64,000 bases of DNA, from contig JBMORX010000010.1 of assembly GCA_049322615.1 (NCBI GenBank), positions 89,416-153,415 of the forward strand. The letters are read 5' to 3'. Of the stretch, positions 3,001-40,100 are shown in pieces. Origin of the DNA: Patescibacteria group bacterium. Lineage in GTDB: Bacteria > Patescibacteriota > Microgenomatia > CAYGWK01. The notes below the pieces were generated by a model. The model was not told the origin of the DNA, searched no databases, and was given only the letters and a program-made list of their open reading frames with translations. The position numbers and the translations under genes are program-made. The first letter of the stretch is position 1. Every line of letters begins with the position of its first letter.

Positions 3001-6000
3001 TTTTTCACTTGGTGCCGTCGTCCCAATTCCCACATTCCCTAAATTATTAACCGTCAGAGCCGGTGTCCAGGCATTGACTCCGGATTTGTAGTCAAGAGTT
3101 AAAAGTCCAGCATTTCTTGGTCTGACTGCTCCTCCCGAAGCAAGATACAGATTTCCAGAAACTGAAGCATCTCCAGAAACATCAAGTTTAGCTAAAGGCG
3201 AGGTGGTCCCAATTCCAATCTGTCCGCCTGTTTCATAAATTATGGAATCGGTTAAAGATGAAGAAGTACTCCATTTGGGAAGGTAGTTTTGTGTTCCCGA
3301 ACCAGAAACCCCACTTGCTCCTGAAGCCACTGCCTTCCAAGAAGAACCATCACAATAGTAGTATTCATCTTGGGCATTGTCATAGTACATTTTCCCTTCA
3401 GAGGAAGCATCACAGGTTCCCGCATAGGCCTGAACTTGGGGTCCTAGAGCTAAAGTCCCAGAAATAGTGGCGTCTTCTGCCAAAGTCAGGTCATTGGCAA
3501 TATAGGTATTGTGAGCCACAATCCCGTTGGCAACAAAGTTGGCGGTATTGGCAATCTGAAGATCATAGACATGTTTTTTACCAGCAGGCTTGATAGAGAC
3601 AATTTTCTCCCACTTGACCCCGCTATATTCCTTAGCATTCGCCTTTTTAATACTATTCGTATACGGCTCATGCTGCGGATTTACGGGGTCTGCGCCCTGT
3701 ACCGAGAAGGGAACTTGGTGGTGGGGCTTGACATCACCTAATTTACTTGTGGTAGAATGATTATCGATGGGAGAGTTAAAAGGAGAACCCAAAGTATATT
3801 CGGAATTTTTCACTAACGGAGCAGTCGCTTGGCTTTCAGCTGGGGTAATTGCGCCCTTATTTGCCAGAACATTAGGAATGAAGGAGGTAATTGCTTCTTT
3901 GATTTCTATTTCTTCTTGTATATTGTTTTTAAAATTAGCCTCTGATTTTAGCAAGGAGGGTCGATGATTGCTGATAATATTTTGATTGCCTACAGTATTG
4001 GAGTGATTATGAGTAGTATTATAATTATTTATGCCTACTTTCGCTTGAAAAAGTGAGGAATTATGAGTATTGAGACTATTGTTTATATCTTGGCGATTAT
4101 TTTCGGGGTGATTGCTTTCTATATTGCCTTCTTCAAGGTGCGTTAAGTTGGCAACCGCTATTTCTTCCCTTTCTTTTAAGAAAATAACTTTCTTCCACCC
4201 ATCAGGCGTTAGGTACGGGTGATTTCCGGTGGTTTCGATCCTTTTGCCTGATTCGGTTTTTAACTCATAAACTTCCTGAATGCCTTTGTCCAGAGTTTTT
4301 TCCACTTTCTGCCAGGCAAATTCTCCAGTATTTTCGTTTAAGGACAAAACTCTGTCTCCAGGTTTAACATCCTTTATTTGTTTATTTGACATTTGACATT
4401 TGACATTTGACATTTGACATTGTGCTACAGGCACTAAGCTATCCTCGGCCACACATTCTCCTGCTACATGGAGTTTTTTGGAAGGCCCCGTCGTCCCGAT
4501 GCCGACGTTGCCGGTATTGATCCAGGAATTGTTACCAGATGTACCAGTGAGTTTTACTAAAGCCGAGGAGGTAGCCGTTGCTCCAAGCAAAACATCATCA
4601 GTGATATTGGTGGGGGAGAGTGCTTGGGCATTTCTTTGCCAATAGCCCGAGGTTCCGGAAGAAGGAGAGTAGATGTTATTGGCATACAAAGCATTCCAAT
4701 ACAAAGATGAAGAACCCAGGTTTCTTGTCCCCGTTGCCTCGGGAGTAATATCTCCAGCTACCTGTAATTTTGAACCAGGACTTGTCGTCCCGATGCCGAC
4801 GTTGCCGCTAATATACGTGTCCCCGTTACCTAAGATTGAAAGTCCTTTCCCAGTTGTATAATCTGAAAGTGTTACTGCATTATGAGTTGCATCACCTTCA
4901 CCCTTAATAATCCATTCTCCATAAGCAGCAGGCCCGATGAAATAATTATCCGAATCAGAGTGGCGAAAATAATCTACATATAGACTGCTCCAGTGACTTG
5001 TAGACAGACCCAAATGTCGGTTGGCGCCAGAAGGAAGGATATGACCTGCTGCTTGGATACTACCCAAAACATCCAGCTTTTGACCCGGATTCGTCGTCCC
5101 GATGCCGACATAACCTTGTTCGGTCATTACCATTCCCGTTGTCCAGGCATCGGCTCCAGATTTATAGGCAAGTTGGAGTGGTCCGTAGGCAGGTCTAATG
5201 GTTTGTCCTTGACCAATGGTTAGGGTTCCAGACATTGAAGCATTGCCGGTAGTTCCTTCAAAATAGAGTTTGGCAGAAGAAGTGGCGGTTCCCCCAATGG
5301 CGACTGATTCGTAAGTGTTGTTGGGATAAATAACTCCACTGGTCTTTGTCCAATATCCTGAAGTTCCACTCGAGCCGCCATAGATATTATTGACATAAAG
5401 ATTATTCCAGTAAAGTGAAGTAGAACCTAAATCGTAAGTGTTTCCAGAGGAGGGAATGAGATTTGAGGCGACGTTGGCGTTTAAAGTTAAGTTTCCGGCT
5501 AAGGTTAAGGCGTTAAGGTTACCAGTGCCAGAGGAATTGATATAATAGGTGGTTCCGCCGCCAACGCTGATTCCCGCTGATGAGACAATATAAGACGCTG
5601 ATTGTTCGCCGATATCCAAAGAAACACCGCCAGCGCCGGTAATATCGCCGCCGGAAACGGTAATATCACCAGTAAAATAAGAACCAGTGGTATTGGCCCG
5701 AAGAATACCGGCGGCTGAGGCATTGCCGCTATAGTCAACTGTAAACTTAGGAGAAGGCGTCGAGCCGGATTCAAGTTTTAAAAGATTTAAATTGGTATTA
5801 TTGTTGGCTACCGAGCCATATAAAAGAGTATTTGCTTCTCGACCGCCTGATGAGCCGAGATTAGCATCGGTGGCGCTTATCACATTTCCCGTCCCGCCTG
5901 ACAAAGTTAGGTTTAGCACTCCGGAGCCATCGGGTGCTATGGCAATATTGCCGTTGGTGCCGGTATCGGTCACAATCGAGAGCGCCTGACCTCTAATTTG

Positions 6001-20269: not shown

Positions 20270-20905
20270 ATGGAAGAGATTGATGTTAAATTAACTAACA
20301 AGGATATTGAGGGAAGATTTAATTGGGAGGCTTTCATTGAGAAACATAAGATTTCCTTAATTTTTGGACTTTTGGGATTGATTTTGGTGGGAGGTGGGTT
20401 CCTGCTTATTTTAAAACTGGGTCAGCCGGAAGATAAGATCGAGATTATTTCTTCGGAAACCTCCTCGGACACAATCCTGGCTGATATCGAAGGAGCGGTG
20501 CAAAAACCCGGAGTTTACAAACTTCAAACTGGCAGTCGACTTCAGGATTTGCTCGTGGCTGCTGGTGGACTCTCTTTAGAGGCGGATAGAAACTGGGCTG
20601 AGAAAATGCTTAATCGAGCGGAGAAGTTGACTGACGGAAAAAAAGTCTATATTCCGAAAAAAGGAGAAGCCCCACTTCGCCCTTCGGGCTCCGTTGGGGG
20701 CACGGGAAGCATTGGCGAGGGTAAGCAGGTAAACATTAATACCGCCAGCCAGTCCGAGCTGGAATCTCTTCGGGGAATCGGACCGGTAACGGCTCAAAAA
20801 ATTATTGATAGCCGTCCATACCGAGAAGTATCTGACCTCTTGACAAAAAAGATTTTAAAAAGTAATGTTTATCAGAGAATAGAGAATCAGTTAACAGTAT
20901 ACTAG
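20270..20905 (+). CDS. comEA: ComEA-like competence protein (membrane anchor plus C-terminal helix-hairpin-helix DNA-binding domain).
   Basis: N-terminal TM, then VNINTASQSELESLRGIGPVTAQKIIDSRPY (HhH). Confidence 0.75.
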   Translation: MEEIDVKLTNKDIEGRFNWEAFIEKHKISLIFGLLGLILVGGGFLLILKLGQPEDKIEIISSETSSDTILADIEGAVQKPGVYKLQTGSRLQDLLVAAGGLSLEADRNWAEKMLNRAEKLTDGKKVYIPKKGEAPLRPSGSVGGTGSIGEGKQVNINTASQSELESLRGIGPVTAQKIIDSRPYREVSDLLTKKILKSNVYQRIENQLTVY

Positions 20906-20918
20906 AATTGGAGATTAG

Positions 20919-21068
20919 TGGCTCGGGTAGGAATTTGTTGTTCGGTTTCGTCATGGCATCCCCCTTCGGGGGTCGCCCTCGGATTCAAGGTTTCAAAACT
21001 CAAGTTGTGTTCCGGAGTCCTCGGGCTTGCCAGGTGAAACCTTCACAAAAATTCTACCCTCGCCCTTA
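20919..21068 (+). repeat. R-element copy 1. This is a ~150-nt structured intergenic repeat with a closing helix P1 (GGGTAGGAATT/AATTCTACCC), the conserved TTGTTG.TCGGTTTC and AAACTCAAGTTGTGTTCC boxes, two variable hairpins, and the tail CCTCGCCCTTA.
   Basis: It aligns with the copies at 22306, 22529, 32621, 35128 (divergent) and 39995 (partial). The helix pairs differ in sequence but stay complementary. Confidence 0.7.
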
Positions 21069-21137
21069 TATGTTATGAATTTTTGCGTTTCTGCTTATTT
21101 TGCGTTTTTGCGTTTGCAAAGGAGGTGAGAAATATGT

Positions 21138-22301
21138 GTGATGACTGCAGAGAACACCATCCAGAACTTTATAATCCGGATGGGACCAGGAAAGAACAAC
21201 CCAAAGAAGAGGGTGAGCAACCAGCAGAAGAGTAAACTAAACTGGTTTTTGTTTTTGGTCTTTCTTTCTCTTTTGTTTCTATTGCGGCTTGGGACTTTTC
21301 TTAAGCCGCAATTTGTTTCCGGGACAAAAATTAAAATTACTGGAACCTTGCATCAGGAACCGAAAAGAACTGGTGGGCTGCAGAGGTTTTCTCTCGCTGG
21401 AATAAAAATCACCACCTGGAGATATCTGGAATATCATTATGGCGATAGGCTGGAGGCGGTGGGAATAGTCAAAGAGAACAATCTTGAGTTGCCTGAGATT
21501 AAGAAAGAAGAAAGAAGGGCGGAGAGAGGAGTTTTATTTTGGATTTACAGACTCCGGCAAAAAATTGAGGAAATTTACCGGCGGACCCTTCCTGAACCCC
21601 AGGCCAGCTTACTTTCGGGCGTTGTTTTGGGTTCGAAATCGGGGATGCCAGCCGATTTTTATGAAGCCTTGCGAAAAACTGGCACTCTCCATGTTGTCGT
21701 GGCTTCGGGCATGAATGTTTCTATTTTAGCCGGCACCTTGGTTTCTTTTTTAATTTTATTTATTTCCCGAAAGAAAGCTGTTATTTTAAGTTCTATTTTG
21801 ATATGGTTTTATGTGCTTTTGGCAGGAGGGGAGGCACCAGTGGTAAGGGCAGGGATTATGGGAACCCTGGCTTTTTTAGCTCAAGGGTTAGGTCGGGAAG
21901 AAGATGCTTGGCGGGGATTGGGGTTGGCCGCCGGGATTTTACTGTTTTTAAATCCTTTAAATATTACAGATTTAGGCTTTCAACTTTCTTTTTCGGCGAC
22001 TTTTGGAATTTTATTCTTCGGACCCCTGTTTAGCAGATTATTTGCTAGACTGCCAAAACAGATTCGTTCTGATTTAAGCCAAACTTTGGCAGCCCAAATT
22101 GTAACTTTACCAATTATAATTTTGAATTTTGGTTATTATTCTGCCCTTTCACCCTTGGTTAATGTTTTGGTGGTTTTCGTTTTGCCTTGGATTATGAGAT
22201 TGGGAATTTTGGTGGCGGTTGGCGGTCAAATTTTTGCCTGGCTGACTTTGCCTTTTTTGACTTATTTTGTCTGGGTTGTAAAATTGTTTTCAAGGATTTA
22301 A
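21138..22301 (+). CDS. comEC: ComEC/Rec2 competence channel domain (membrane part). The start is probably downstream of 21138.
   Basis: TGTLHVVVASGMNVSILAG...GGEAPVVRAGIMGTLAFLAQGLGRE... matches the ComEC competence domain. The ORF ends at the first R2/R3 element. Confidence 0.75.
   Translation: MMTAENTIQNFIIRMGPGKNNPKKRVSNQQKSKLNWFLFLVFLSLLFLLRLGTFLKPQFVSGTKIKITGTLHQEPKRTGGLQRFSLAGIKITTWRYLEYHYGDRLEAVGIVKENNLELPEIKKEERRAERGVLFWIYRLRQKIEEIYRRTLPEPQASLLSGVVLGSKSGMPADFYEALRKTGTLHVVVASGMNVSILAGTLVSFLILFISRKKAVILSSILIWFYVLLAGGEAPVVRAGIMGTLAFLAQGLGREEDAWRGLGLAAGILLFLNPLNITDLGFQLSFSATFGILFFGPLFSRLFARLPKQIRSDLSQTLAAQIVTLPIIILNFGYYSALSPLVNVLVVFVLPWIMRLGILVAVGGQIFAWLTLPFLTYFVWVVKLFSRI
22261..22291. 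repeat. 31-nt direct repeat CTTATTTTGTCTGGGTTGTAAAATTGTTTTC, copy 1 (the 3' end of the comEC-N ORF).
   Basis: An identical copy lies at 22489-22519. The pair brackets R-element copy 2. Confidence 0.85.
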
Positions 22302-22305
22302 CTTT

Positions 22306-22456
22306 GGCTCGGAGACGAACGTTTTGCTTGAGTTTAGAGATGACGTCCGATTAAATCGGACACGGCCTGCTTAGATGAAGATTTTAAGACTCAAGTTGTG
22401 TCCCGGGAGGCGCAGGCCTGTCACATTAAACTCTGCGCAAAAGTTGTCTCCTCGCC
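22306..22456 (+). repeat. R-element copy 2 (P1 is GGAGACGAAC/GTTGTCTCC).
   Basis: ggctcggagacgaacgttttgcttgagtttagagatgacgtccgattaaatcggacacggcc...aaactcaagttgtgtcccgggaggcgcaggcctgtcacattaaactctgcgcaaaagttgtctcctcgcc. Nearly identical to copy 4 at 32621. Confidence 0.75.
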
Positions 22457-22488
22457 ATCTTTAGAAGAAAAATTTATTTAATTTTTAT

Positions 22489-22519
22489 CTTATTTTGTCT
22501 GGGTTGTAAAATTGTTTTC
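22489..22519. repeat. 31-nt direct repeat, copy 2.
   Basis: Identical to 22261-22291. Confidence 0.85.
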
Positions 22520-22528
22520 GTAGGGATG

Positions 22529-22740
22529 TGGCTCGGGAATGAATTTGTTGCTTGGATTTAGTGATGGCTCCCGCCAATTAGGCGGGACCAGCTCGCGACT
22601 GGGTAATTCGAAACTCAAGTTGTGTTCCAGGGGGTCGCGGCTTGGAACGTCAGACGTTCCTTGCCACTTAAATCCGGCGCAAAAATTATTCCCTCGCCCT
22701 TAATTTCTTAATATCTTAGTCTCTTAATATCTTTTATTTT
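22529..22740 (+). repeat. R-element copy 3 (P1 is GGGAATGAATT/AATTATTCCC) plus the 3' tail CCTCGCCCTTAATTTCTTAATATCTTAGTCTCTTAATATCTT, which runs up to the ATG at 22741.
   Basis: Shares the same boxes. The tail is shared with copy 4 (32770-32811), which ends at the mreB ATG. Confidence 0.7.
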
Positions 22741-23622
22741 ATGAATCAAAAATTCAAATATTTCCTGGCTGTTTTAGGGTTAATCGCTGCTTTGTTGGCT
22801 GGAGCGATAACTTCCTTTCCCGACCAAAATCTTCATCTTGTCTTCTGTGATGTTGGTCAGGGAGATGCCACTCTTTTGGTTCGGGGGACAACCCAAGTTC
22901 TGGTTGATGGTGGTCCTTCGGATAAAGTCTTGGGCTGTCTTTCAAAACACTTGCCTTTTTGGGATAGAGATTTGGAGATGGTCATTTTAACTCACCCAGA
23001 ATCTGATCACCTAACTGGCTTGGTCTCTGTTATAGAAAGATATGGTGTGAAGCAGTTAATCAGTAATTCGCTGCTTGCCGATAGTGGGGTTTTTAGCAAA
23101 TTTAGGGAAAAAGTGATAGAAGAGAAAATTCCGGTTTTCTCCCCGAAATCTGGAGACAAAATTAAAATTGGCAACCTGGAAATTAAGATTTTATATCCTT
23201 TGGAGAAATTGGGAGAGGAAATTGTCTGGAAATCTTCGGAAACCCCCCAAGTTTTAGGGATTTCAACCTATCCTGGCAATTTTAATGAGACCGCCATCGT
23301 CTCCGAGATAAATTTTGGGAATTTCAAAGTTCTTTTAACCGGAGATATTGGGGTGGAGGAAGAAAATCAGCTTCAGACTGAGCCTGTCGAAGTCTTGAAA
23401 GTCGCTCATCATGGCAGCAAATACTCAACTTCTCAAGAATTCTTAGAGAAAATCTCGCCAGAACTGGCAATAATTTCCGTTGGCGCTACCAACCGCTACG
23501 GTCACCCGGCAAACGAAGTGCTGAAGAGATTAAGAAATTTAGATATTAAGATATTAAGAACAGACTTAGATGGGGAGATTGAGATTATAAGCGACGGAAA
23601 GGGTTGGAAGGTTAGAGATTAA
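22741..23622 (+). CDS. comEC: ComEC C-terminal metallo-beta-lactamase-fold domain, as a separate ORF.
   Basis: HLVFCDVGQGDATLLVRGTTQVLVDGGP...ILTHPESDHLTGL (MBL HxHxDH motif). The 440-bp gap back to the channel ORF is filled by R2 and R3. Confidence 0.75.
   Translation: MNQKFKYFLAVLGLIAALLAGAITSFPDQNLHLVFCDVGQGDATLLVRGTTQVLVDGGPSDKVLGCLSKHLPFWDRDLEMVILTHPESDHLTGLVSVIERYGVKQLISNSLLADSGVFSKFREKVIEEKIPVFSPKSGDKIKIGNLEIKILYPLEKLGEEIVWKSSETPQVLGISTYPGNFNETAIVSEINFGNFKVLLTGDIGVEEENQLQTEPVEVLKVAHHGSKYSTSQEFLEKISPELAIISVGATNRYGHPANEVLKRLRNLDIKILRTDLDGEIEIISDGKGWKVRD
23530..23558. repeat. Partial copy (inverted) of the CTTAATATCTTAATATC element, in frame within the comEC-C ORF (encodes LRNLDIKILRT).
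   Basis: gaaatttagatattaagatattaagaac. The reverse complement shares 18 nt with the 33-nt element in rnhB and fmt. Confidence 0.6.
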
Positions 23623-24104
23623 TTTTCCTGACGGAATTGCCGGCGTTTTTTGAAAAGATTCTCGCGGAAGCCGCCCTCTCGGATAAATTTTTTTCTTAGG
23701 GATTCGATTTGTTTTTCTAAAAGATAGGTGGTTCTCTGACAAAGCATTATCATAAGATTGGCCGCTAGCTCTGGATTGTGGGGGATATGGGGGAATTGGG
23801 GGAGATGGGGGAAGGGTTCCCTCACCACCCTCAAATCCCTCAACTTCCTCATTCTCGGGTCGTCTTTTGACCAAATTTCCAATCCTCTTTGTCTTAAGAA
23901 ATCCTCATAGTCTTCTTCTAATTCTTTAATTGACCCTTTAGAAATACCTAAGAATTTAATATAGCCCTCTAATTCATATCCTTCGACGATGTCTTGTTTT
24001 CCAGATCTTCCTGCTTGTGTCATCTGGTCTCTTTGGCGAAGGAGCTCGCGTCCAGGTAAAAATTTAGGACAGAATTCAGTGGTTAAGTCGTATATTTTAG
24101 ACAA
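23619..24104 (-). CDS. Four-helix-bundle protein with C-terminal suffix (161 aa).
   Basis: RDQMTQAGRSGKQDIVEG...EEDYEDFLRQRGLEIWSKDDPR...EGGFRENLFKKRRQFRQEN. Paralog of 6840..7490 and 30651..31241. Confidence 0.55.
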   Translation of the reverse strand: MSKIYDLTTEFCPKFLPGRELLRQRDQMTQAGRSGKQDIVEGYELEGYIKFLGISKGSIKELEEDYEDFLRQRGLEIWSKDDPRMRKLRDLRVVREPFPHLPQFPHIPHNPELAANLMIMLCQRTTYLLEKQIESLRKKFIREGGFRENLFKKRRQFRQEN

Positions 24105-24124
24105 AAATAATTTGGAGGTTTTTA

Positions 24125-24379
24125 TCAGAGATGTCCGTTGGGGTGGAAGTCAAGGGCGGTGTAGATAATTTCCGCATCTTCCCAATCCCGGCAGCATAAT
24201 TGGTGCTCTTCTTCTGGGTTTTGAGAATGGTGTCGGCGTTCAGCAAGTTTATTGGCAATTATATTGATTTCTGCTTCATCTTCCGGGGTCCAGGGACCAT
24301 GAGCCCGCATTTTCTCTTCTATAATCTCTCCCACCGAGCGGAGGGCAGAATCCTTTCCTTTGGGAGCTTCAATTGACAT
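24125..24379 (-). CDS. Hypothetical small protein (84 aa).
   Basis: ORF only, no recognisable motif. Confidence 0.3.
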   Translation of the reverse strand: MSIEAPKGKDSALRSVGEIIEEKMRAHGPWTPEDEAEINIIANKLAERRHHSQNPEEEHQLCCRDWEDAEIIYTALDFHPNGHL

Positions 24380-24452
24380 CTTTTGATGTAGTATTAATAC
24401 TAGAGAAAGAAACCATTGTTTGTCAAGAGGGAGGGTGATATAATCAAGAAAA

Positions 24453-26204
24453 ATGATTCGCGACCAGATTAAAAAAGATTTTGGAAAGGTTTTGGAAAAA
24501 CTGCGGATTTCCCCGGAGAAATTGGTTTTTGAGCACCCAGAAAATCCCGAATTTGGCGATTATTCGACGAATATTGCCCTAAAATTAAAAGTCAAAAGTC
24601 AAAAGTTAAAAGTTGCCAATCCTTTTGATTTGGCAAACAAAATTGTCAACACCTGGCGCTCTCAGGGATTGCCTGACTGGTTAGCCAAAATCCAGGTTGC
24701 TCCGCCGGGATTTATTAATTTGTGGCTAAAAGAAGACCTTCTTATCGGTCAACTTTCCCAAGTGCTAAGAGAAAAAGATGGATTCGGCAGGCTCGCCATT
24801 GGTAAGGGCAAAACCGTCATCGTTGACTATTCTTCGCCCAATATTGCCAAGCCTTTTGGTATCGGTCATCTTCGCTCAACCATTATTGGTCAGGCGCTTT
24901 ATAATCTTTATAAATTCTTGGGTTTTAAGGTTATCGGTGATAACCATTTGGGCGATTGGGGGACACAATTTGGGAAATTAATTTACCAAATTAAAAGTCA
25001 AAAATTAAAAGTTAAAAATTTGACGATTGAGGATTTGGAGAGACTCTACGTTGACTTTCATAAGAAGGCAGAAGAAAATCCCAAACTTGAGGATGAGGCA
25101 AGAGCCTGGTTTAAAAAACTTGAAGAAGGGGATAAAGAGGCGAGAAAAATCTGGCAAGCCTGTGTCGATATATCCCTCCGGGAATTTGCCCGAGTTTATA
25201 AACTTTTAGGCATAAAATTTGACGTTTCTTACGGCGAAAGTTTTTATGAAGGTAAAATGGCAGAGGTTGTCTTTGAAGCCAAGAAAAAGGGAATCGCCAA
25301 AGAAAGCCAAGGCGCCCTGATTATTCCCATCCCAGGAATGGAAACTCCTTTGATGCTTTTAAAATCTGATGGGGCGACCACCTACGAAACCCGGGAGTTG
25401 GCAACGATTAAATATAGAAAAAAGCGCTGGCACCCGGTTCTTGCGATTTGGGAAGTTGGAGCAGATCAAAAATTTCATTTTCTAAAGTCTTTTGCCGCCG
25501 CCGAACTACTTGGTTACGGAAAAATGCAGCAGTTTGTTCATGTTCCTCATGGTTTGATACGGTGGGTTTATGGCAAATTTTCCACCAGAAAAGGAGAGAC
25601 AATTCATTTGGAAGAGGTTTTAAGTGAGGCAATAAAGCGGGCGGAAAAGATAATTTCCGAATCGGAAACCAGTCGCGGACTTTCCAAAAAAGAGAAAAAA
25701 GAGGTCGCCGAAGCGGTTGGGGTTGGAGCAGTTGTCTATTTTGATCTATCTCATCAGCCGGAAACAGACATTATTTTTGACTGGGAGAAGATTTTTGTTT
25801 TGGAGGGCAATTCCGGACCGTATTTACAGTATACTTATGCTCGTTGCCAGTCGGTCTTGGCTAAAGCCAAACTTAAGCAATTTAGCAATCTAGCAATCGA
25901 GCAATCTAGCAATTTGAACCCGGAAGAATTATCAATTTTGCGCACCATTTACAAGTTTCCTGAAGTGGTTCAATCTTCAGCCGAGGCTTTCTCGCCAAAT
26001 CTGCTTTGCAATTTTCTTTTTGATTTGTGCCAAAAATATAATCTTTTTTACCAAAAACACCCGATCCTGAAACCGCAAAAACGCGGAAATTTAGCAGAAA
26101 CGCAGAAAATAAGAGAACTCCGACTTGGTTTAACCGCCGCCACTGGTCAGGTTTTGCAGAATGGATTGACGTTATTGGGAATAAAAACATTGGAGAGAAT
26201 GTAA
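24453..26204 (+). CDS. argS: Arginyl-tRNA synthetase.
   Basis: 583 aa with SSPNIAKPFGIGHLRSTIIGQALYNLYKF (class-I HIGH region of ArgRS). It contains two in-frame copies of an AAAAGTCAAAAGT-type repeat (24588-24612 and 24988-25018, peptide KSQKLKV) and a 4x ~8-nt AGCAATCT repeat (25880-25912). Confidence 0.93.
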   Translation: MIRDQIKKDFGKVLEKLRISPEKLVFEHPENPEFGDYSTNIALKLKVKSQKLKVANPFDLANKIVNTWRSQGLPDWLAKIQVAPPGFINLWLKEDLLIGQLSQVLREKDGFGRLAIGKGKTVIVDYSSPNIAKPFGIGHLRSTIIGQALYNLYKFLGFKVIGDNHLGDWGTQFGKLIYQIKSQKLKVKNLTIEDLERLYVDFHKKAEENPKLEDEARAWFKKLEEGDKEARKIWQACVDISLREFARVYKLLGIKFDVSYGESFYEGKMAEVVFEAKKKGIAKESQGALIIPIPGMETPLMLLKSDGATTYETRELATIKYRKKRWHPVLAIWEVGADQKFHFLKSFAAAELLGYGKMQQFVHVPHGLIRWVYGKFSTRKGETIHLEEVLSEAIKRAEKIISESETSRGLSKKEKKEVAEAVGVGAVVYFDLSHQPETDIIFDWEKIFVLEGNSGPYLQYTYARCQSVLAKAKLKQFSNLAIEQSSNLNPEELSILRTIYKFPEVVQSSAEAFSPNLLCNFLFDLCQKYNLFYQKHPILKPQKRGNLAETQKIRELRLGLTAATGQVLQNGLTLLGIKTLERM

Positions 26205-30650: not shown

Positions 30651-31241
30651 ATGCTGCCTAAATACAAATACCTTTTGACTTACCGTTATGCCGAAATTAT
30701 TCAGGACGGAACAAACGATTTTTGTCTAAGACACTTAAGTGACTTAAGAAACTTAAGAATTCCTACGAGGCGGACTGTCGAGCAGATGACGCAAAGCGGC
30801 CGGAGTCTGAAACAAAATATTATTGAGGCAGTAAGCGATAGTCTGACTTCGAAAAAAACCGAGATTAAACTTTTGGGAGTAGCCTACGGTTCGGTTGAAG
30901 AATTGATTGCCGATTTTGAAGATTTTTTAAGACAAAGAAACCTGCAAATTTGGCCGAAAACAGATAAGCGAGTCTTAATCTTTCGTCGACTTGGGTATCG
31001 CTTAAGTAACCTAAGTAACCTAAGTAACCTAAGTAACCTAAGTAACTTAGGAAACTTAAAAGAAAAACTAGTTTTACCGGAAAATCCCGAAGAAGCGGCC
31101 AATTTACTTTTGACTTTGTGTCACATGGAGAGTTATCTTTTAAGTTGTCAAATTAAAGCGGCGGAAGAAAAATTTATCAAAGAAGGCGGCTACACGGAAA
31201 ACTTGTTTAAAAAGCGCCTTGAAAGTAGAATACTTAAGTAA
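30651..31241 (+). CDS. Four-helix-bundle protein with suffix (196 aa). It contains an in-frame tandem repeat.
   Basis: RRTVEQMTQSGRSLKQNIIEA...EGGYTENLFKKRLESRILK. An internal 5x 12-nt repeat AAGTAACCTAAG (31002-31056) encodes LSNLSNLSNLSNLGNL. Confidence 0.55.
   Translation: MLPKYKYLLTYRYAEIIQDGTNDFCLRHLSDLRNLRIPTRRTVEQMTQSGRSLKQNIIEAVSDSLTSKKTEIKLLGVAYGSVEELIADFEDFLRQRNLQIWPKTDKRVLIFRRLGYRLSNLSNLSNLSNLSNLGNLKEKLVLPENPEEAANLLLTLCHMESYLLSCQIKAAEEKFIKEGGYTENLFKKRLESRILK
31002..31056. repeat. 5x 12-nt tandem repeat (CTTAAGTAACCT-type) inside the four-helix-bundle gene. Further CTTAAG-containing repeats lie at 30740-30770 and 31232-31265.
   Basis: cttaagtaacctaagtaacctaagtaacctaagtaacctaagtaacttagga. 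Confidence 0.85.
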
Positions 31242-32588: not shown

Positions 32589-32620
32589 AAGTTGGTATAA
32601 TTGGGAAGTTTTTGGTTTGT

Positions 32621-32811
32621 TGGCTCGGAGACGAACGTTTTGCTTGAGTTTAGAGATGACGTCCCGCTTTGCGGGACACGGCCTGCTTAGATGAAGATTT
32701 CAAAACTCAAGTTGTGTTCCGGGAGGCGCAGGCCTGTCACATTAAACTCTGCGCAAAAGTTGTCTCCTCGCCCTTAATTTCTTAATATCTTAGTCTCTTA
32801 ATATCTTAAAA
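32621..32811 (+). repeat. R-element copy 4 plus its tail, directly abutting the mreB start codon.
   Basis: Near-identical to copy 2 (22306-22456) except for the P2 hairpin loop. The tail cctcgcccttaatttcttaatatcttagtctcttaatatcttaaaa is followed by the ATG at 32812. Confidence 0.75.
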
Positions 32812-35127: not shown

Positions 35128-35300
35128 GACTCGGAGACGAACGTTTTGCTTGAGTTTAGATTGGATTGTTAGATTATTTGCTAGGGTATAGGGGATGAGT
35201 TAAGGTGAAGTAGCGCGTTACGGCTACGTCAATGGGTGACGTTACCCATAAACCAATCCTTAACGCGCCGCGTCACCATCACCGTAACCGTAACCTTTAT
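35128..35300 (+). repeat. R-element copy 5 (the 5' half CTCGGAGACGAACGTTTTGCTTGAGTTTAG is conserved, the 3' part divergent).
   Basis: The first 34 nt match copies 2 and 4. The rest carries GTTAC/GTAAC-rich hairpins. Confidence 0.5.
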
Positions 35301-35407: not shown

Positions 35408-36022
35408 ATGAAAAAATTAATCAAGCAGGTATTAGGCGGAGACGAAGAGGCAACTTGCCTACTTTGTAATTTTCTTACCGCCAGGCTTAAGAAACTAATC
35501 TTTAGGAAAATTGATAATCCTTGCGATGCCGAGGAGGTTTTGCAAGACACTTTAATTTCCATTTTAGACTCTCTGCCACTTTTTAGGGGGAAATCCTCAT
35601 TTTTGACTTGGAGTTTGAGTATTGCCAGGCACGAGATTGTTGATTATTATCGGAAAAAGAAAATTAAGGCTATTTTGTTTTCCCATTTGCCATTTTTGGA
35701 AGATTTAGCAAGTATCGCTTTGGGTCCCCAGGAGTTGTTATTGAAAAAAGAGCTGACCCAAGAAATCAAAAAGGTTTTAGAGAAAGTCTCCGAAGGATAT
35801 CGGAAGATTTTGCGACTTAAATATATAGAAGGGTGCTCTGTTGCCGAGATAGCCAGAGAGATGGATTTAAGTCCTAAGGCAATCGAGTCCAGGCTCACGA
35901 GGGCAAGAGAGGCTTTCAAGTTGGCTTGGAGGGCGGCAAATGCCCCTTTGGCAACAGAGACAGTGACCAATGACAAATTACGAAGAAAAAGTAAAAAAAT
36001 TCTTGGTTTTGGCAGCCATTAA
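35408..36022 (+). CDS. ECF-type sigma-70 family RNA polymerase sigma factor.
   Basis: Region 2 (EEVLQDTLISILDSLPLFRGKSSFLTWSLSIARHEIVDYYRKK) and region 4 (YRKILRLKYIEGCSVAEIAREMDLSPKAIESRLTRAREAFK). Confidence 0.8.
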   Translation: MKKLIKQVLGGDEEATCLLCNFLTARLKKLIFRKIDNPCDAEEVLQDTLISILDSLPLFRGKSSFLTWSLSIARHEIVDYYRKKKIKAILFSHLPFLEDLASIALGPQELLLKKELTQEIKKVLEKVSEGYRKILRLKYIEGCSVAEIAREMDLSPKAIESRLTRAREAFKLAWRAANAPLATETVTNDKLRRKSKKILGFGSH

Positions 36023-36332
36023 AGAATCTTATTTGTTCTTGCGGAATCTCTATGGACTGCGGTATCATCCATTCAAAACCATTCGCCAGATTCGCCGAGA
36101 GAATGATTGGTCACAGACAATCCTCGTTTTAGGTTTACCAATTTATCTTTGGTTTGGAGGTTTGCTGTTTTCCCTAGGAGCAACTTTTTTCTTTTGGAAA
36201 ATTTGGCAGTGGGAAGAAGGACAGCTTCTCGTCTTTGGTTTATTTATTCTTTTCTCTTTAGGGGCAAGTTTGCTTTCGTTTTATATCTTATTTTGGTTTG
36301 GACAGTATTTTTTGAGATGTCAAAAGTTATAA
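35970..36332 (+). CDS. Small membrane protein overlapping the 3' end of the sigma gene. Putative anti-sigma factor.
   Basis: 120 aa with three TM helices. The call rests on position only, immediately downstream of and overlapping the ECF sigma. Confidence 0.4.
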   Translation: MTNYEEKVKKFLVLAAIKESYLFLRNLYGLRYHPFKTIRQIRRENDWSQTILVLGLPIYLWFGGLLFSLGATFFFWKIWQWEEGQLLVFGLFILFSLGASLLSFYILFWFGQYFLRCQKL

Positions 36333-36763
36333 GCAGGAATTTTTTAATTAAAACAAAAAAAGGACCGGAGTTTATTGATATCACCGAAAAGGTGGCAAAA
36401 ATTGTCGAAAAGTCGAAGGTTAAGCATGGGATGGTCCATATTTTTGCCAAACACACCACGGCGGCGATTAAGATTAATGAAAATGAGCCACTTTTAATCA
36501 CTGACATGGAGGAGTTTTTACTGAGGGTGGCTGCCCCAAACGGAGAGTACAATCATAATGATTTTAGGAGGAGAAAGACTAATATGTGCGAGGGAGAATG
36601 CGCCAACGGTCATTCTCATTGTCAGCATTTACTTTTATCAGCTTCAGAAACAGTGCCAATATTTGCAGGAAAACTTGGGCTTGGAACTTGGCAAAGTATT
36701 TTTTTGGTTGAGCTTGATCGGGCAAGAACAAGAGAAGTAGTCGTTCAGGTTTGGGGAGAGTAG
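36317..36763 (+). CDS. YjbQ-family (UPF0047, secondary thiamine-phosphate synthase-like) protein. Start refined to the internal Met of track ORF 36107..36763.
   Basis: MSKVISRNFLIKTKKGPEFIDITEKVAKIV...GMVHIFAKHTTAAIKINENEP...GKLGLGTWQSIFLVELDRARTREVVVQVWG matches the YjbQ pattern. The upstream part of the track ORF is a different gene, in another frame of the same strand. Confidence 0.78.
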   Translation: MSKVISRNFLIKTKKGPEFIDITEKVAKIVEKSKVKHGMVHIFAKHTTAAIKINENEPLLITDMEEFLLRVAAPNGEYNHNDFRRRKTNMCEGECANGHSHCQHLLLSASETVPIFAGKLGLGTWQSIFLVELDRARTREVVVQVWGE

Positions 36764-36821
36764 ACGAGGTTGAACCTCAAGTAGAGCGATAATTCCAGGC
36801 GTTTTAAGGGTTTTTAAGAAT

Positions 36822-37040
36822 TTATTCGGTTCCCTTGGTTTGGATGCCCAAAAGCCAGAGGACCGCCTCTTTGCGGTAGCGGCGGTCGCCGCGAGAGTTA
36901 ATCCGAATTGCGGGCAGTTTTCCTCTTTTGCCCCAGCGTTTAATCGTTAGGGGAGAGACCCGGAGAATCTCGGCTACCTCCCGGACGGTTAATAAATCAG
37001 GCAGGTCTTCAAGCGATAAAGGTTTCTTGGGGTCCGCCAT
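36822..37040 (-). CDS. Excisionase-family (MerR-like) helix-turn-helix DNA-binding protein.
   Basis: LLTVREVAEILRVSPLTIKRWGKRGKLPAIRI fits the Xis/excisionase HTH pattern. Confidence 0.6.
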   Translation of the reverse strand: MADPKKPLSLEDLPDLLTVREVAEILRVSPLTIKRWGKRGKLPAIRINSRGDRRYRKEAVLWLLGIQTKGTE

Positions 37041-37126
37041 AACTACCTCTTTCTCTAAACTAGAGTATCACAGTATAACGAAGTTTGTCAATACCCAAAA
37101 CTTATTTGCGGTTTTAAAATAGAGTC

Positions 37127-37645
37127 TTGTTTTATTGGGGGTGGAATTTTTATAATTGTGGTATGATGAACGCAGAACCAAGCGGAACAAAACGCGGAAC
37201 AACGCTGCTTTATCCCCATGAGTCTTATTTAATCCGGGGTGCCTATTTTGCTATCTATCAAAAGTTCCGCAATACCCAAAAAGAGTCTGTTTATCAAAAT
37301 GCCCTGCTCGAAGAGCTAAAACATAAAGGTTTGAAAATTGAAAGGGAAAAACAGTTGCCAATATATCATTTAGGGGTAAAAGTTGGTGTTTATACCCCTG
37401 ATTTATTGATCAATGGAGCAATTATTATCGAATTAAAGGCGAAGCCATTTCTTCATCAAGAAGACGTTAGACAGTTTTGGTATTACTTAAAAAACTCTCA
37501 ATTCAAGTTGGGATTCTTAGTGAATTTTGGTGAGCCAAACGGTGTCAAAATAGTCCGTCGTGTTTATGACACCGCCCGCCAGCGTAGTTCCGCGTCTAGT
37601 TCAGCGGCACGTCAAACGTGCCAGCCGCGTTTGACGGCGGCGTAG
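37127..37645 (+). CDS. GxxExxY-family protein (PD-(D/E)xK-like). The start is probably at the internal Met.
   Basis: ESYLIRGAYFAIYQKF...ESVYQNALLEELKHKGLKIEREKQLPIYHLGVKVGVYTPDLLINGAIIIELKAKP. Confidence 0.65.
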   Translation: MFYWGWNFYNCGMMNAEPSGTKRGTTLLYPHESYLIRGAYFAIYQKFRNTQKESVYQNALLEELKHKGLKIEREKQLPIYHLGVKVGVYTPDLLINGAIIIELKAKPFLHQEDVRQFWYYLKNSQFKLGFLVNFGEPNGVKIVRRVYDTARQRSSASSSAARQTCQPRLTAA

Positions 37646-37764: not shown

Positions 37765-38220
37765 TTACTTCAATTCTACGATGGCCCCAGCGGTCTCTAA
37801 TTTTTTCTTCGCCTCTTCGGCCGTGGTTTTATTAACCCCAATTAAAACTTCTTTAGGAGTGCTTTCCACCAAATCTTTGGCTTCTTTAAGACCTAAAGTT
37901 TGATTTATTTCCCGAACTGCTTTGATAACCGAGATTTTATTCGCCCCTGGATTGGTTAAAACCACATTAAAAGTAGTTTGCCCTGGAGCTTCTTCTGTAG
38001 GTATAGCACCAGCCTGGGTAGGAGCAGCTTGCCCCGAAGGAGCGGGGACGACCTGAGGGGCAACTACGCCAAATTTTTCCTCCAAAGCCTTGACTAAATC
38101 TGCCAGTTCCAAAACTGACAGTTTTTCGATTTCCACAATCAAATCCTGAAGTTTTTTACTGGATTCTTTTGCGCCCTTTGCTTCTTTTTGCGTCTTTGCG
38201 TTTGCAGGTTCTTCTGCCAT
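37765..38220 (-). CDS. rplL: Ribosomal protein L7/L12, with an N-terminal K/E-rich extension.
   Basis: ...[16 protein letters not shown]...[57 protein letters not shown]. Confidence 0.9.
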
Positions 38221-39994: not shown

Positions 39995-40100
39995 GGTGGA
40001 GATGAATTTTTGTTTTTTGGGTTCGGGAACGAATTTTTGCTTGGATTTAAAAATGGTTCCCGCCGATTCGGGGACCTACTGGCTTAAGTTAGTTTTCAAT
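39995..40100 (+). repeat. R-element copy 6 (partial or degenerate).
   Basis: ggggtggagatgaatttttgtt...gggaacgaatttttgcttggatttaaaaatggttcccgccgattcggggacc. Shares the 5' boxes and the P2-type hairpin. Confidence 0.45.

Follow-up and report, generated by a model that had tools for sequence, protein, structure and literature searches.

Small, non-coding, imperfectly palindromic repeats of 100-155 bp with a rod-like fold are known from Neisseria (the Correia elements, CREE/NEMIS) and from enterobacteria (ERIC/IRU). They sit between genes or between cistrons, are co-transcribed with their neighbours, are patchily distributed in close relatives, and may bring promoter-like sequence. The subject here is a comparable repeat family, called R, and mainly one of its copies, R2, which lies between two exact 31-nt direct repeats at the 3' end of the comEC channel gene of a Patescibacteria group bacterium. 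The DNA analysed is a stretch of 64,000 nucleotides, called the window (GenBank assembly GCA_049322615.1, contig JBMORX010000010.1, positions 89,416 to 153,415 of the forward strand). It is fairly probable that the repeat-flanked block with R2 was made by recombination, or by a template-switch duplication-insertion, next to an older R copy and between two genes that were already separate. The exact pathway is less certain than this package as a whole.

R shares its small size, non-coding rod shape, inter-cistronic sites and patchy distribution with the Correia and ERIC elements. It differs in having no sequence similarity to known records (Rfam, BLAST), in terminal inverted repeats of only about 15/22, and in its three-way junction with a conserved apical loop. 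Unlike in the Correia case, the flanks of R also show no TA (or any regular short) target duplication. So far R is known from a narrow group of Patescibacteria.

Miniature inverted-repeat transposable elements (MITEs) are likewise short, non-coding and multi-copy, with ends that pair, presence/absence polymorphism and near-identical unlinked copies, as R2 and the copy R4 are here. In the fold, the ends of R (GGCTCGGGAAC.. and ..GTTCCCTCGCC) close a long stem at its base, and taken as inverted repeats they agree imperfectly, by eye at about 15 of 22 positions. R departs from MITEs in having no regular target-site duplication (one of nine copies, 31 bp), and in showing co-mobilised fragments of flanking gene ends. 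No parent insertion sequence or transposase with R-like ends was found among the open reading frames (ORFs) annotated near the copies. R is classed with a known kind, the small structured intergenic repeat; the family itself is new.

The region around R2 reads as follows. MBL stands for the metallo-beta-lactamase domain, DR for direct repeat, and names starting with an L are loci from relatives.

20270..20905, + strand: comEA (SLBB plus helix-hairpin-helix), the gene upstream in the operon (ORF; Pfam HHH_3, SLBB).
21138..22301, + strand: comEC channel gene, Competence domain only (Pfam PF03772, E 9e-51).
22257..22284, + strand: promoter-like TTGACT-16-TAAAAT in the 3' end of the channel gene (consensus scan 10/12; pattern match only).
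22261..22291, + strand: DR1, the 31-mer in native coding sequence (..YFVWVVKLFS), conserved in all relatives.
22292..22301, + strand: X, the channel gene's own closing codons with its stop (..RI*, AAGGATTTAA; stop at 22299-22301).
22304..22459, + strand: R2, full copy of type A (covariance model 137 bits; core GGCTCGG...CCTCGCC at 22306-22456).
22457..22488, + strand: Y, a 32-nt AT-rich spacer, with no source and no other copy found in the window or the loci.
22489..22519, + strand: DR2, the second 31-mer, non-coding, an exact match to DR1.
22520..22529, + strand: GTAGGGATGT, a degenerate second gene end (KLFS*), with the same joint as in L001 and L011.
22528..22701, + strand: R3, the older copy, type B (covariance model 157 bits; orthologue at L001:2344-2499).
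22699..22733, + strand: tail T, (CTTAATAT)x4.4, with 7 nt left between its end and the MBL ATG (Tandem Repeats Finder, TRF; identical to the tail after R4).
22741..23622, + strand: separate gene for the MBL (nuclease) domain, with a membrane helix at the N-terminus (Pfam Lactamase_B, E 1e-12).

The 31-mer, CTTATTTTGTCTGGGTTGTAAAATTGTTTTC, is found exactly twice in the window, at 22261-22291 and 22489-22519, just as a first-pass annotation of this DNA had reported. There is no third copy in the window, even with up to 3 mismatches, and in 100 shuffles the number of occurrences was 0. The repeat can be extended imperfectly to 38 nt with 2 mismatches (22254-22291 vs 22482-22519), which takes it through TTTTT. 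Between DR1 and DR2 come, in order, X (10 nt) with CTT(T), R2, and the 32 AT-rich bases of Y, in line with the earlier description of R copy 2 plus some 30 nt of AT-rich sequence. This insert is 197 bp long, and together with one 31-mer it forms a gained block of 228 bp. The annotation also called the 31-mer the last 31 nt of the channel ORF. It does lie inside the 3' end of that ORF, but 10 further coding bases follow. The two ORFs themselves, channel and MBL, were predicted correctly and have Pfam matches to Competence and Lactamase_B.

Comparison loci were fetched from seven relatives. The closest, L001, has a channel protein that is 81% identical, and it reads 31-mer, GTAGAGATGT, a type B copy of R, and then the ATG of the MBL gene. 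It has a single 31-mer and no R2. From DR2 onwards the window (31-mer, GTAGGGATGT, R3) reads as L001 does, and the same joint is also seen in L011. The joint between the 31-mer and the R3 orthologue in L001 is exactly the one found at DR2, so the 228-bp block that includes R2 is a gain specific to the lineage of the window. L001 is also the kind of site that the annotation had suggested searching for, without the element but with one 31-mer kept.

DR1 and DR2 both have a C (TTGTCTGGG) that is absent in seven out of seven relatives, so the 31-mer was duplicated within the window lineage. The import of DR2 from an L001-like foreign donor was considered and rejected, as DR2 has the window-specific C.

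In effect the window has two tandem versions of a gene end followed by R, of which the first is intact and coding, and the second is a relic of the KLFS* type. A gene end of that type occurs in the three closest relatives. X (AAGGATTTAA, ..SRI*) is identical at 8 of 10 positions to the gene end of L014, GAGGATATAA (..ARI*), and only 0.1% of the 10-mers in the window match as well (p about 0.001). It also aligns with the gene end of L012, AAGGGTATAG (..TRV*). The C-termini of most channel homologues follow the pattern F-x-[RGKE]-[ILVM], a consensus that X restores. The 10 nt after DR1 are therefore native gene sequence and not part of the element.

At the other joint, the 3' end of Y and the start of DR2 form an 11-nt imperfect tandem (TTTATTTAATT / TTTATCTTATT; TRF 22473-22496), which amounts to microhomology. 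The end of Y also resembles, in direct reading, the end of tail T just 5' of the MBL ATG. The two units are not alike over their full length: the 31-mers agree at 31/31 positions, the next 10 nt at about 50%, the R cores at 63%, and the tails can not be aligned. TRF did not detect a 228-nt period. A simple tandem duplication was rejected for these two reasons.

Canonical ComEC, of the B. subtilis type, is a single protein with DUF4131, Competence and Lactamase_B domains. The clade studied here has the same domains in the same order beside comEA, but encodes them as two ORFs throughout. Compared to a single-polypeptide ComEC with three domains, the window agrees in having PF03772 and a comEA directly upstream, and it departs in not having one ORF. 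The first-pass annotation held that the insertion of R had turned a normally single comEC into two ORFs. In that case relatives free of the insertion should have an unsplit gene. Channel and MBL are however two ORFs in the window, L001, L002, L003, L010 and L012, and several relatives are without any element at the junction:

L003, channel identity 70%: channel and MBL ORFs overlap by 4 nt, no element.
L010, channel identity 79%: channel and MBL ORFs overlap by 4 nt, no element.
L002, channel identity 74%: channel and MBL ORFs 15 nt apart, no element.
L014, channel identity 74%: the contig stops 11 nt past the channel stop, and those 11 nt are element-free.

Since element-free relatives (L002, L003, L010) carry the same two ORFs, the split is older than the insertion of R, and the two-ORF comEC is ancestral in this Patescibacteria clade. 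A split without R elements in related genomes is what the annotation itself had said would speak against its account, so this attractive insertion story of comEC fission has to be corrected.

A search with the channel ORF gave 1656 homologous matches. Among the best 120 of these, which go from 100% down to about 40% identity and measure 216-528 aa, all have PF03772 and none has Lactamase_B. This two-gene organisation agrees with the finding that about half of the Competence-domain proteins have no fused MBL domain, with many gains and losses, and that Competence-only or DUF4131+Competence architectures are widespread across bacteria (PMC6299819).

R is a family of non-coding, rod-shaped repeats of about 150 nt. 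In total there are 10 full or near-full copies and 2 truncated ones. The window has 4 of the full copies, all on the + strand, plus two 5' fragments. The 6 copies outside of the window come from 4 other assemblies: L001 (twice), CAYGWK01 (L005 and L006), L009, and L011, where a contig end cuts the copy. Next to R2 and R3, the window contains:

20918..21067, + strand: R1, full copy of divergent type C in the comEA|comEC gap, 14 nt past the comEA stop (covariance model 124 bits).
21080..21115, + strand: 8-nt tandem array (TTTTTGCG x4.4) directly after R1 (TRF).
32620..32807, + strand: R4 (type A, 32620-32775) with tail T, in the mreB 5' untranslated region (covariance-model match).
35130..35160, + strand: truncated R, first 31-35 nt or so, type A (nhmmer E 2e-4).
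40017..40085, + strand: truncated R, about the first 65 nt, type B (nhmmer E 1e-8).

R2 and R4 are 93% identical, R2 and R3 63%, and R3 and its L001 orthologue (L001b) 81%. The subtypes diverge by 30-37%. Three point differences and the junction hairpin (22344-22362 vs 32660-32677) are all that separates R2 from R4; in the hairpin, stem and loop have been replaced but still pair perfectly (UCCGAUUAAAUCGGA vs UCCCGCUUUGCGGGA). This hairpin is different in every copy. R3 alone has an extra hairpin of about 19 nt (GGAACGTCAGACGTTCC, around 22644-22662), a nested micro-insertion. In L005 a 32-nt fragment of the R 3' end (5691-5722) is located 5 nt past a full R, as a second case of R beside R.

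Single copies of R fold with a z of -5 to -6 versus shuffles, on either strand. The architecture consists of an interrupted basal stem of about 20 bp, two more stems, and a three-way junction at the cap. The junction bears a hairpin of hypervariable sequence as well as a stem-loop whose apex, ACUCNAGUUGUGU, is kept in nine copies. The L011 copy is without this conserved loop and central motif. In a model-based alignment 93% of cells pair, versus 35-51% with the partners slid, and the two outer helices are 97% paired. There are 12 pairs that changed on both sides, which for ten related sequences is good, not rigorous, evidence of covariation. DNA-level quasi-palindrome correction could also be a source of such compensatory changes.

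Rfam has nothing for these elements. On the window only tRNAs reach the gathering score, and at E<=10 no match coincides with a copy of R or of S, a second repeat family that is described below. On L001, L009, L011 and L012 nothing matched at E<=1. Nor did anything similar to the 506-bp region come up in BLAST searches of phage and plasmid collections. A scan for the pattern GCTCGG..ACTCNAGTTGTGT..CCTCGCC delivered 4 matches in genomes, of which 2 are real and both in the metagenome-assembled genome CAYGWK01, 2 matches in metagenomes (1 real), and 0 in viral contigs; this pattern is too strict, for example because the L011 copy lacks the central motif, and the counts do not give the size or host range of the family. 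Viral-contig scans for S and for type-B stems also gave 0 matches. A few full-text searches of the literature found nothing relevant on MITEs or structured repeats in Patescibacteria.

Several other identities for R were tried and rejected. Its short ORFs change frame between copies and its hairpin varies in length by non-multiples of 3, which rules out a protein-coding sequence. It is not an intrinsic terminator, as no terminator-like site lies within any copy. A template/variable repeat pair of a diversity-generating retroelement, a riboswitch and an integron attC site were all rejected on anatomy or context.

The presence of elements differs from relative to relative. The comEA|channel gap has R in the window and L001, and measures 3-16 nt without any element in L011, L002, L012, L003 and L014. 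The channel|MBL gap has R in the window, L001 and L011, nothing in L002, L003 and L010, and S in L012/L013. In the leader of mreB, R4 and its 35-nt tail are found in the window only; L016, L017 and L018 have neither R nor T, with MreB 93-94% identical and a conserved TGnTATAAT promoter. Judging by this distribution R acts like a mobile repeat, or at any rate like one with rapid turnover, and the channel|MBL junction is a hot spot for two unrelated families, R and S.

The short mreB leader of CAYGWK01 (L016:3006-3035) starts with GGCGACGAAC..TTTAGG, which has a faint likeness to the 5' end of R (GGCTCGGAGACGAAC..TTTAG). This may be a decayed remnant of R, or chance. The record of CAYGWK01 (GCA_964353785.1; L005, L006, L016) carries the title 'uncultured Gammaproteobacteria bacterium'. 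Given an MreB that is 93% identical to that of the window, the same gene neighbourhoods and the copies of R, it appears to be a mislabelled Patescibacteria relative.

Tail T adds to this. A 42-nt stretch, made up of the last 7 nt of the core and the 35-nt tail, is identical after R3 and R4 (where the tail is at 32773-32807), despite cores that differ by a third, and this is a further sign of exchange between the two loci. In the relatives compared, the stretch is absent upstream of both MBL and mreB. The annotation was right that an R-element tail supplies the sequence immediately upstream of the MBL ATG.

How the block came about can be pictured as follows. R3 would already have been in the channel|MBL gap of the common ancestor of the window, L001 and L011. 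The 228-bp block would have been added later and in the window lineage only, bringing 31 nt of gene end, X, an R2 of another subtype, and Y. A nascent strand or broken end may have stalled at the strongly folding R3, and copied a gene-end fossil, an R copy (R_A) and some flank from an ectopic R locus. It could then have re-annealed 31 nt behind its point of departure, at a short T-rich microhomology. Such a template switch would resemble microhomology-mediated break-induced replication (MMBIR). The same product would result if a small excised circle re-integrated through the 31-mer by a single, Campbell-type crossover. DR1 would stay coding with its native C-terminus, and DR2 would be left as a non-coding relic.

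The first-pass annotation had offered a choice between insertion with target duplication and duplication by recombination. The lineage-specific gain is real, and of the two options recombination fits better. R2 is the only one of nine full copies with a flanking repeat of more than 9 nt; the other eight share 6-9 nt, which is not above shuffled flanks. In addition, the similarity between R2 and R4 ends exactly at the core ends, which places X and Y outside the shared R unit.

Two known systems come close. Elements that integrate in gene 3' ends, for example of tRNA or tmRNA genes, and that carry a replacement 3' end, leave att duplications whose direct repeats are likewise built from the 3' end of the gene they enter. 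There too the upstream copy keeps the gene intact, as DR1 and X do with a native C-terminus, and the downstream copy is a displaced relic, like DR2. The difference is that the cargo here is 197 bp without an integrase ORF, and that the partner element is itself a dispersed repeat. No site-specific recombinase was found in the 197-bp insert or in the neighbouring ORFs examined.

Templated insertion by MMBIR or by fork stalling and template switching (FoSTeS) also has an ectopic insert beside a short local duplication, with one joint in microhomology and the other in homology. The obstacle of strong secondary structure at the site is present as well, in the form of R3. Most descriptions of these processes come from eukaryotes and from model systems in E. 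coli, and at this locus it is the sequence that suggests one.

A number of observations sit less well with recombination or template switching. Short-word BLAST of the 64-kb window and the loci found no donor carrying X-R_A-Y beyond chance. An insertion at a staggered cut likewise leaves an exact repeat with sharp edges. The drop from 31/31 to about 50% identity over the next 10 nt is predicted in detail by no model, and the arrangement is carried by a single genome. Finally, the tail T shared by R3 and R4, together with the core identity of R2 and R4, shows that there were further exchanges between the loci.

The rival that survives best, although it is unlikely, is transposition. R2, as a DNA or RNA intermediate, would have entered a site like that of L001 just upstream of R3, a 31-nt stagger would have been filled in, and X and Y would be donor flanks or filler. 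This accounts for an exact and sharp-edged repeat around one element, with the pre-insertion sequence present in L001, and for a near-identical sister copy (R4) at an unlinked site; the presence/absence polymorphism of R is moreover typical of mobile repeats. A duplication of 31 bp however far exceeds what transposases usually make, and eight other full copies of R have no flanking repeat. X is native gene sequence and in frame, which would happen by chance with a p of about 0.001, and neither X nor Y is in the unit shared by R2 and R4. The neighbouring ORFs examined include no transposase or integrase.

The idea of an enzyme with a fixed stagger also has to deal with a patchwork at 35.1 kb, which is 13 kb from comEC. 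There the truncated type-A R (35130-35160; the subtype of R2 and R4) is followed by:

35162..35191, + strand: fossil comEC channel-gene 3' end, 30 nt (WIVRLFARV*), attached to S (L012 comparison).
35192..35298, + strand: S, a second rod-shaped repeat family of about 105 nt (90% identical to L012; folding z -4.2).

The fossil and S together are 90% identical to L012:1797-1933, which is the L012 gene end plus S. In L012 (1828-1933) and in L013, S fills the channel|MBL gap that is held by R3 in the window. Rfam has no match on the S locus. Fragments of the end of the channel gene are in this way found beside two element families at two loci, which argues for a recombinational or replicative patchwork rather than for a cut-and-paste enzyme with a fixed stagger. 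The 15 nt before the R fragment (TTTTCGCTAGGTAT) resemble a gene end of the DR2 type.

A more general proposal, which is doubtful, is that R and S are transcribed and structured RNA/DNA modules that spread by an RNA-templated or template-switch route, and that in doing so carry along as much as about 30 nt of the gene end and promoter that precede them. Their recurrent source and sink would then be the comEC channel|MBL junction. If true, this would be a previously undescribed, flank-transducing kind of mobility for small bacterial repeats, and it would explain why 3'-end fragments of one gene are found beside elements of two families.

It is also rather improbable that the block is an old tandem duplication of gene end, R and tail, from before the window and L001 separated. 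L001 and L011 would each have lost one unit, and the identity of the 31-mers would be due either to gene conversion or to selection on a coding DR1 and a promoter in DR2. Both units do resemble a native gene end plus R, and the divergence of R2 and R3 (63% identity) is older than that of R3 between the window and L001 (81%). There is also the promoter-like TTGACT-16-TAAAAT in the 31-mer, where the right edge of DR1 (22291) is 7 nt past the -10 hexamer. The -35 hexamer is however lost in DR2. Conversion would have to end exactly at the 31-nt boundary and spread the lineage-specific C, two independent and precise losses would be required (L001, L011), and the core of R2 is young in this genome, being 93% identical to R4.

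A further reading, quite improbable as an explanation of the block, is that R is a functional cis-acting RNA. Within a 5'-UTR or between cistrons it would act in stability, processing or regulation, perhaps with a promoter that faces outward, and the 31-mer would have been kept as a promoter for R3 and MBL after the loss of coupling. Orientation fits this, since 9 of the 10 copies run in the direction of the gene that follows them, and so does the apical loop ACUCNAGUUGUGU conserved in nine copies. Both R4 and the 35.1-kb fragment have, 15-20 nt upstream, a promoter-like site as good as the one in DR1 or better (all of them no more than matches to a consensus); R4 for example starts 20 nt past TGGACA-18-TATAAT. 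The 3' strand of R3 has a weak promoter-like TTGCCA-17-AATTAT. On the other hand, the downstream genes are functionally unrelated (comEC, MBL, mreB, cyclodeaminase), the L005 copy is antisense to both of its neighbours, and the L011 copy does without the conserved loop. Truncated copies exist, the element is missing at orthologous sites of close relatives, and the compensatory changes might be the work of quasi-palindrome correction.

Independent k=31 Logan contigs of the same run (SRR32167786) match window positions 22704-24497 exactly, and both break inside tail T, which is where L015 starts. They confirm the organism and the duplication of the tail; the 31-mer itself is beyond their reach. 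Least probable of all is an assembly artefact or population mixture, in which two junction alleles (one with R_A after the gene end, the other with R_B), or the chromosome and a circle of 228 bp, were threaded through the 31-mer: the repeat length of exactly 31 nt coincides with a k-mer size in common use, the sequence comes from a metagenome-assembled genome, and repeats of the R family are where the Logan contigs break, but threading in series needs real reads over the Y|DR2 joint, which neither allele alone supplies, the similarity goes on imperfectly past 31 nt, the source contig of 161.7 kb was probably built with a k above 31 or with long reads, and the Logan contigs reproduce the flanking sequence at 100%.

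The channel protein is unchanged by the block. The MBL gene on the other hand is no longer translationally coupled, and in front of it there are now R2, a second promoter-like 31-mer, R3 and tail T. Insertions at the channel|MBL junction uncouple the two genes and give a new 5' leader to the nuclease gene of the DNA-uptake machinery, and this may affect competence in such naturally transformable bacteria (PMC10633639).

The block records the turnover of repeat elements in a bacterium that has not been cultivated. With R and S, two structured repeat families are recorded in organisms whose non-coding DNA is almost unexplored. The junction of two translationally coupled genes turns out to be an insertion hot spot, holding nothing, R or S depending on the relative. 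A long exact repeat, with native gene-end fragments carried along, also provides a handle on the movement of repeats where no transposase is evident.

Some smaller observations remain. Within the 3' coding part of the MBL gene (23524-23558), at a distance of 790 nt downstream of tail T, there is an inverted copy of this tail with 86% complementarity. This coding sequence (RLRNLDIKILRTD) is conserved in relatives. Tail T may be derived from it, may pair with it, or may resemble it by chance. Motifs related to the tandem arrays are also present at 38186 and 38877, and near rplL/rplJ there are 8 matches to TTTTGCG-type motifs, versus 0.3 expected.

Going by the N-termini of homologues, the channel gene probably starts at the GTG at 21213. 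The roughly 145 nt from R1 to this GTG are not in relatives, and hold a Cys-rich ORF of 33 aa (MCDDCREHHPELYNPDG..) with a strong Shine-Dalgarno sequence (21134-21235).

Further downstream the window has three genes, for an ECF sigma factor, a UPF0047 protein and a member of the PD-(D/E)XK nuclease family (35408-37645), with a WecG-like gene on one side and rplL on the other. These genes are absent from the syntenic stretch of CAYGWK01 (L016). It is possible that 35408-37645 is an inserted block, and it would start right after the patchwork of R and S.

The ORFs neighbouring the block are comEA, MBL, a 23S-IVP-like protein and ArgRS. Two genes resembling the '23S rRNA intervening-sequence protein' flank the region, at 23619-24104 (- strand) and 30651-31241 (+ strand). 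A 9-nt tandem repeat (TGGGGGANA) at 23779-23813 overlaps one of these, and the other one has an LSNLSN repeat.

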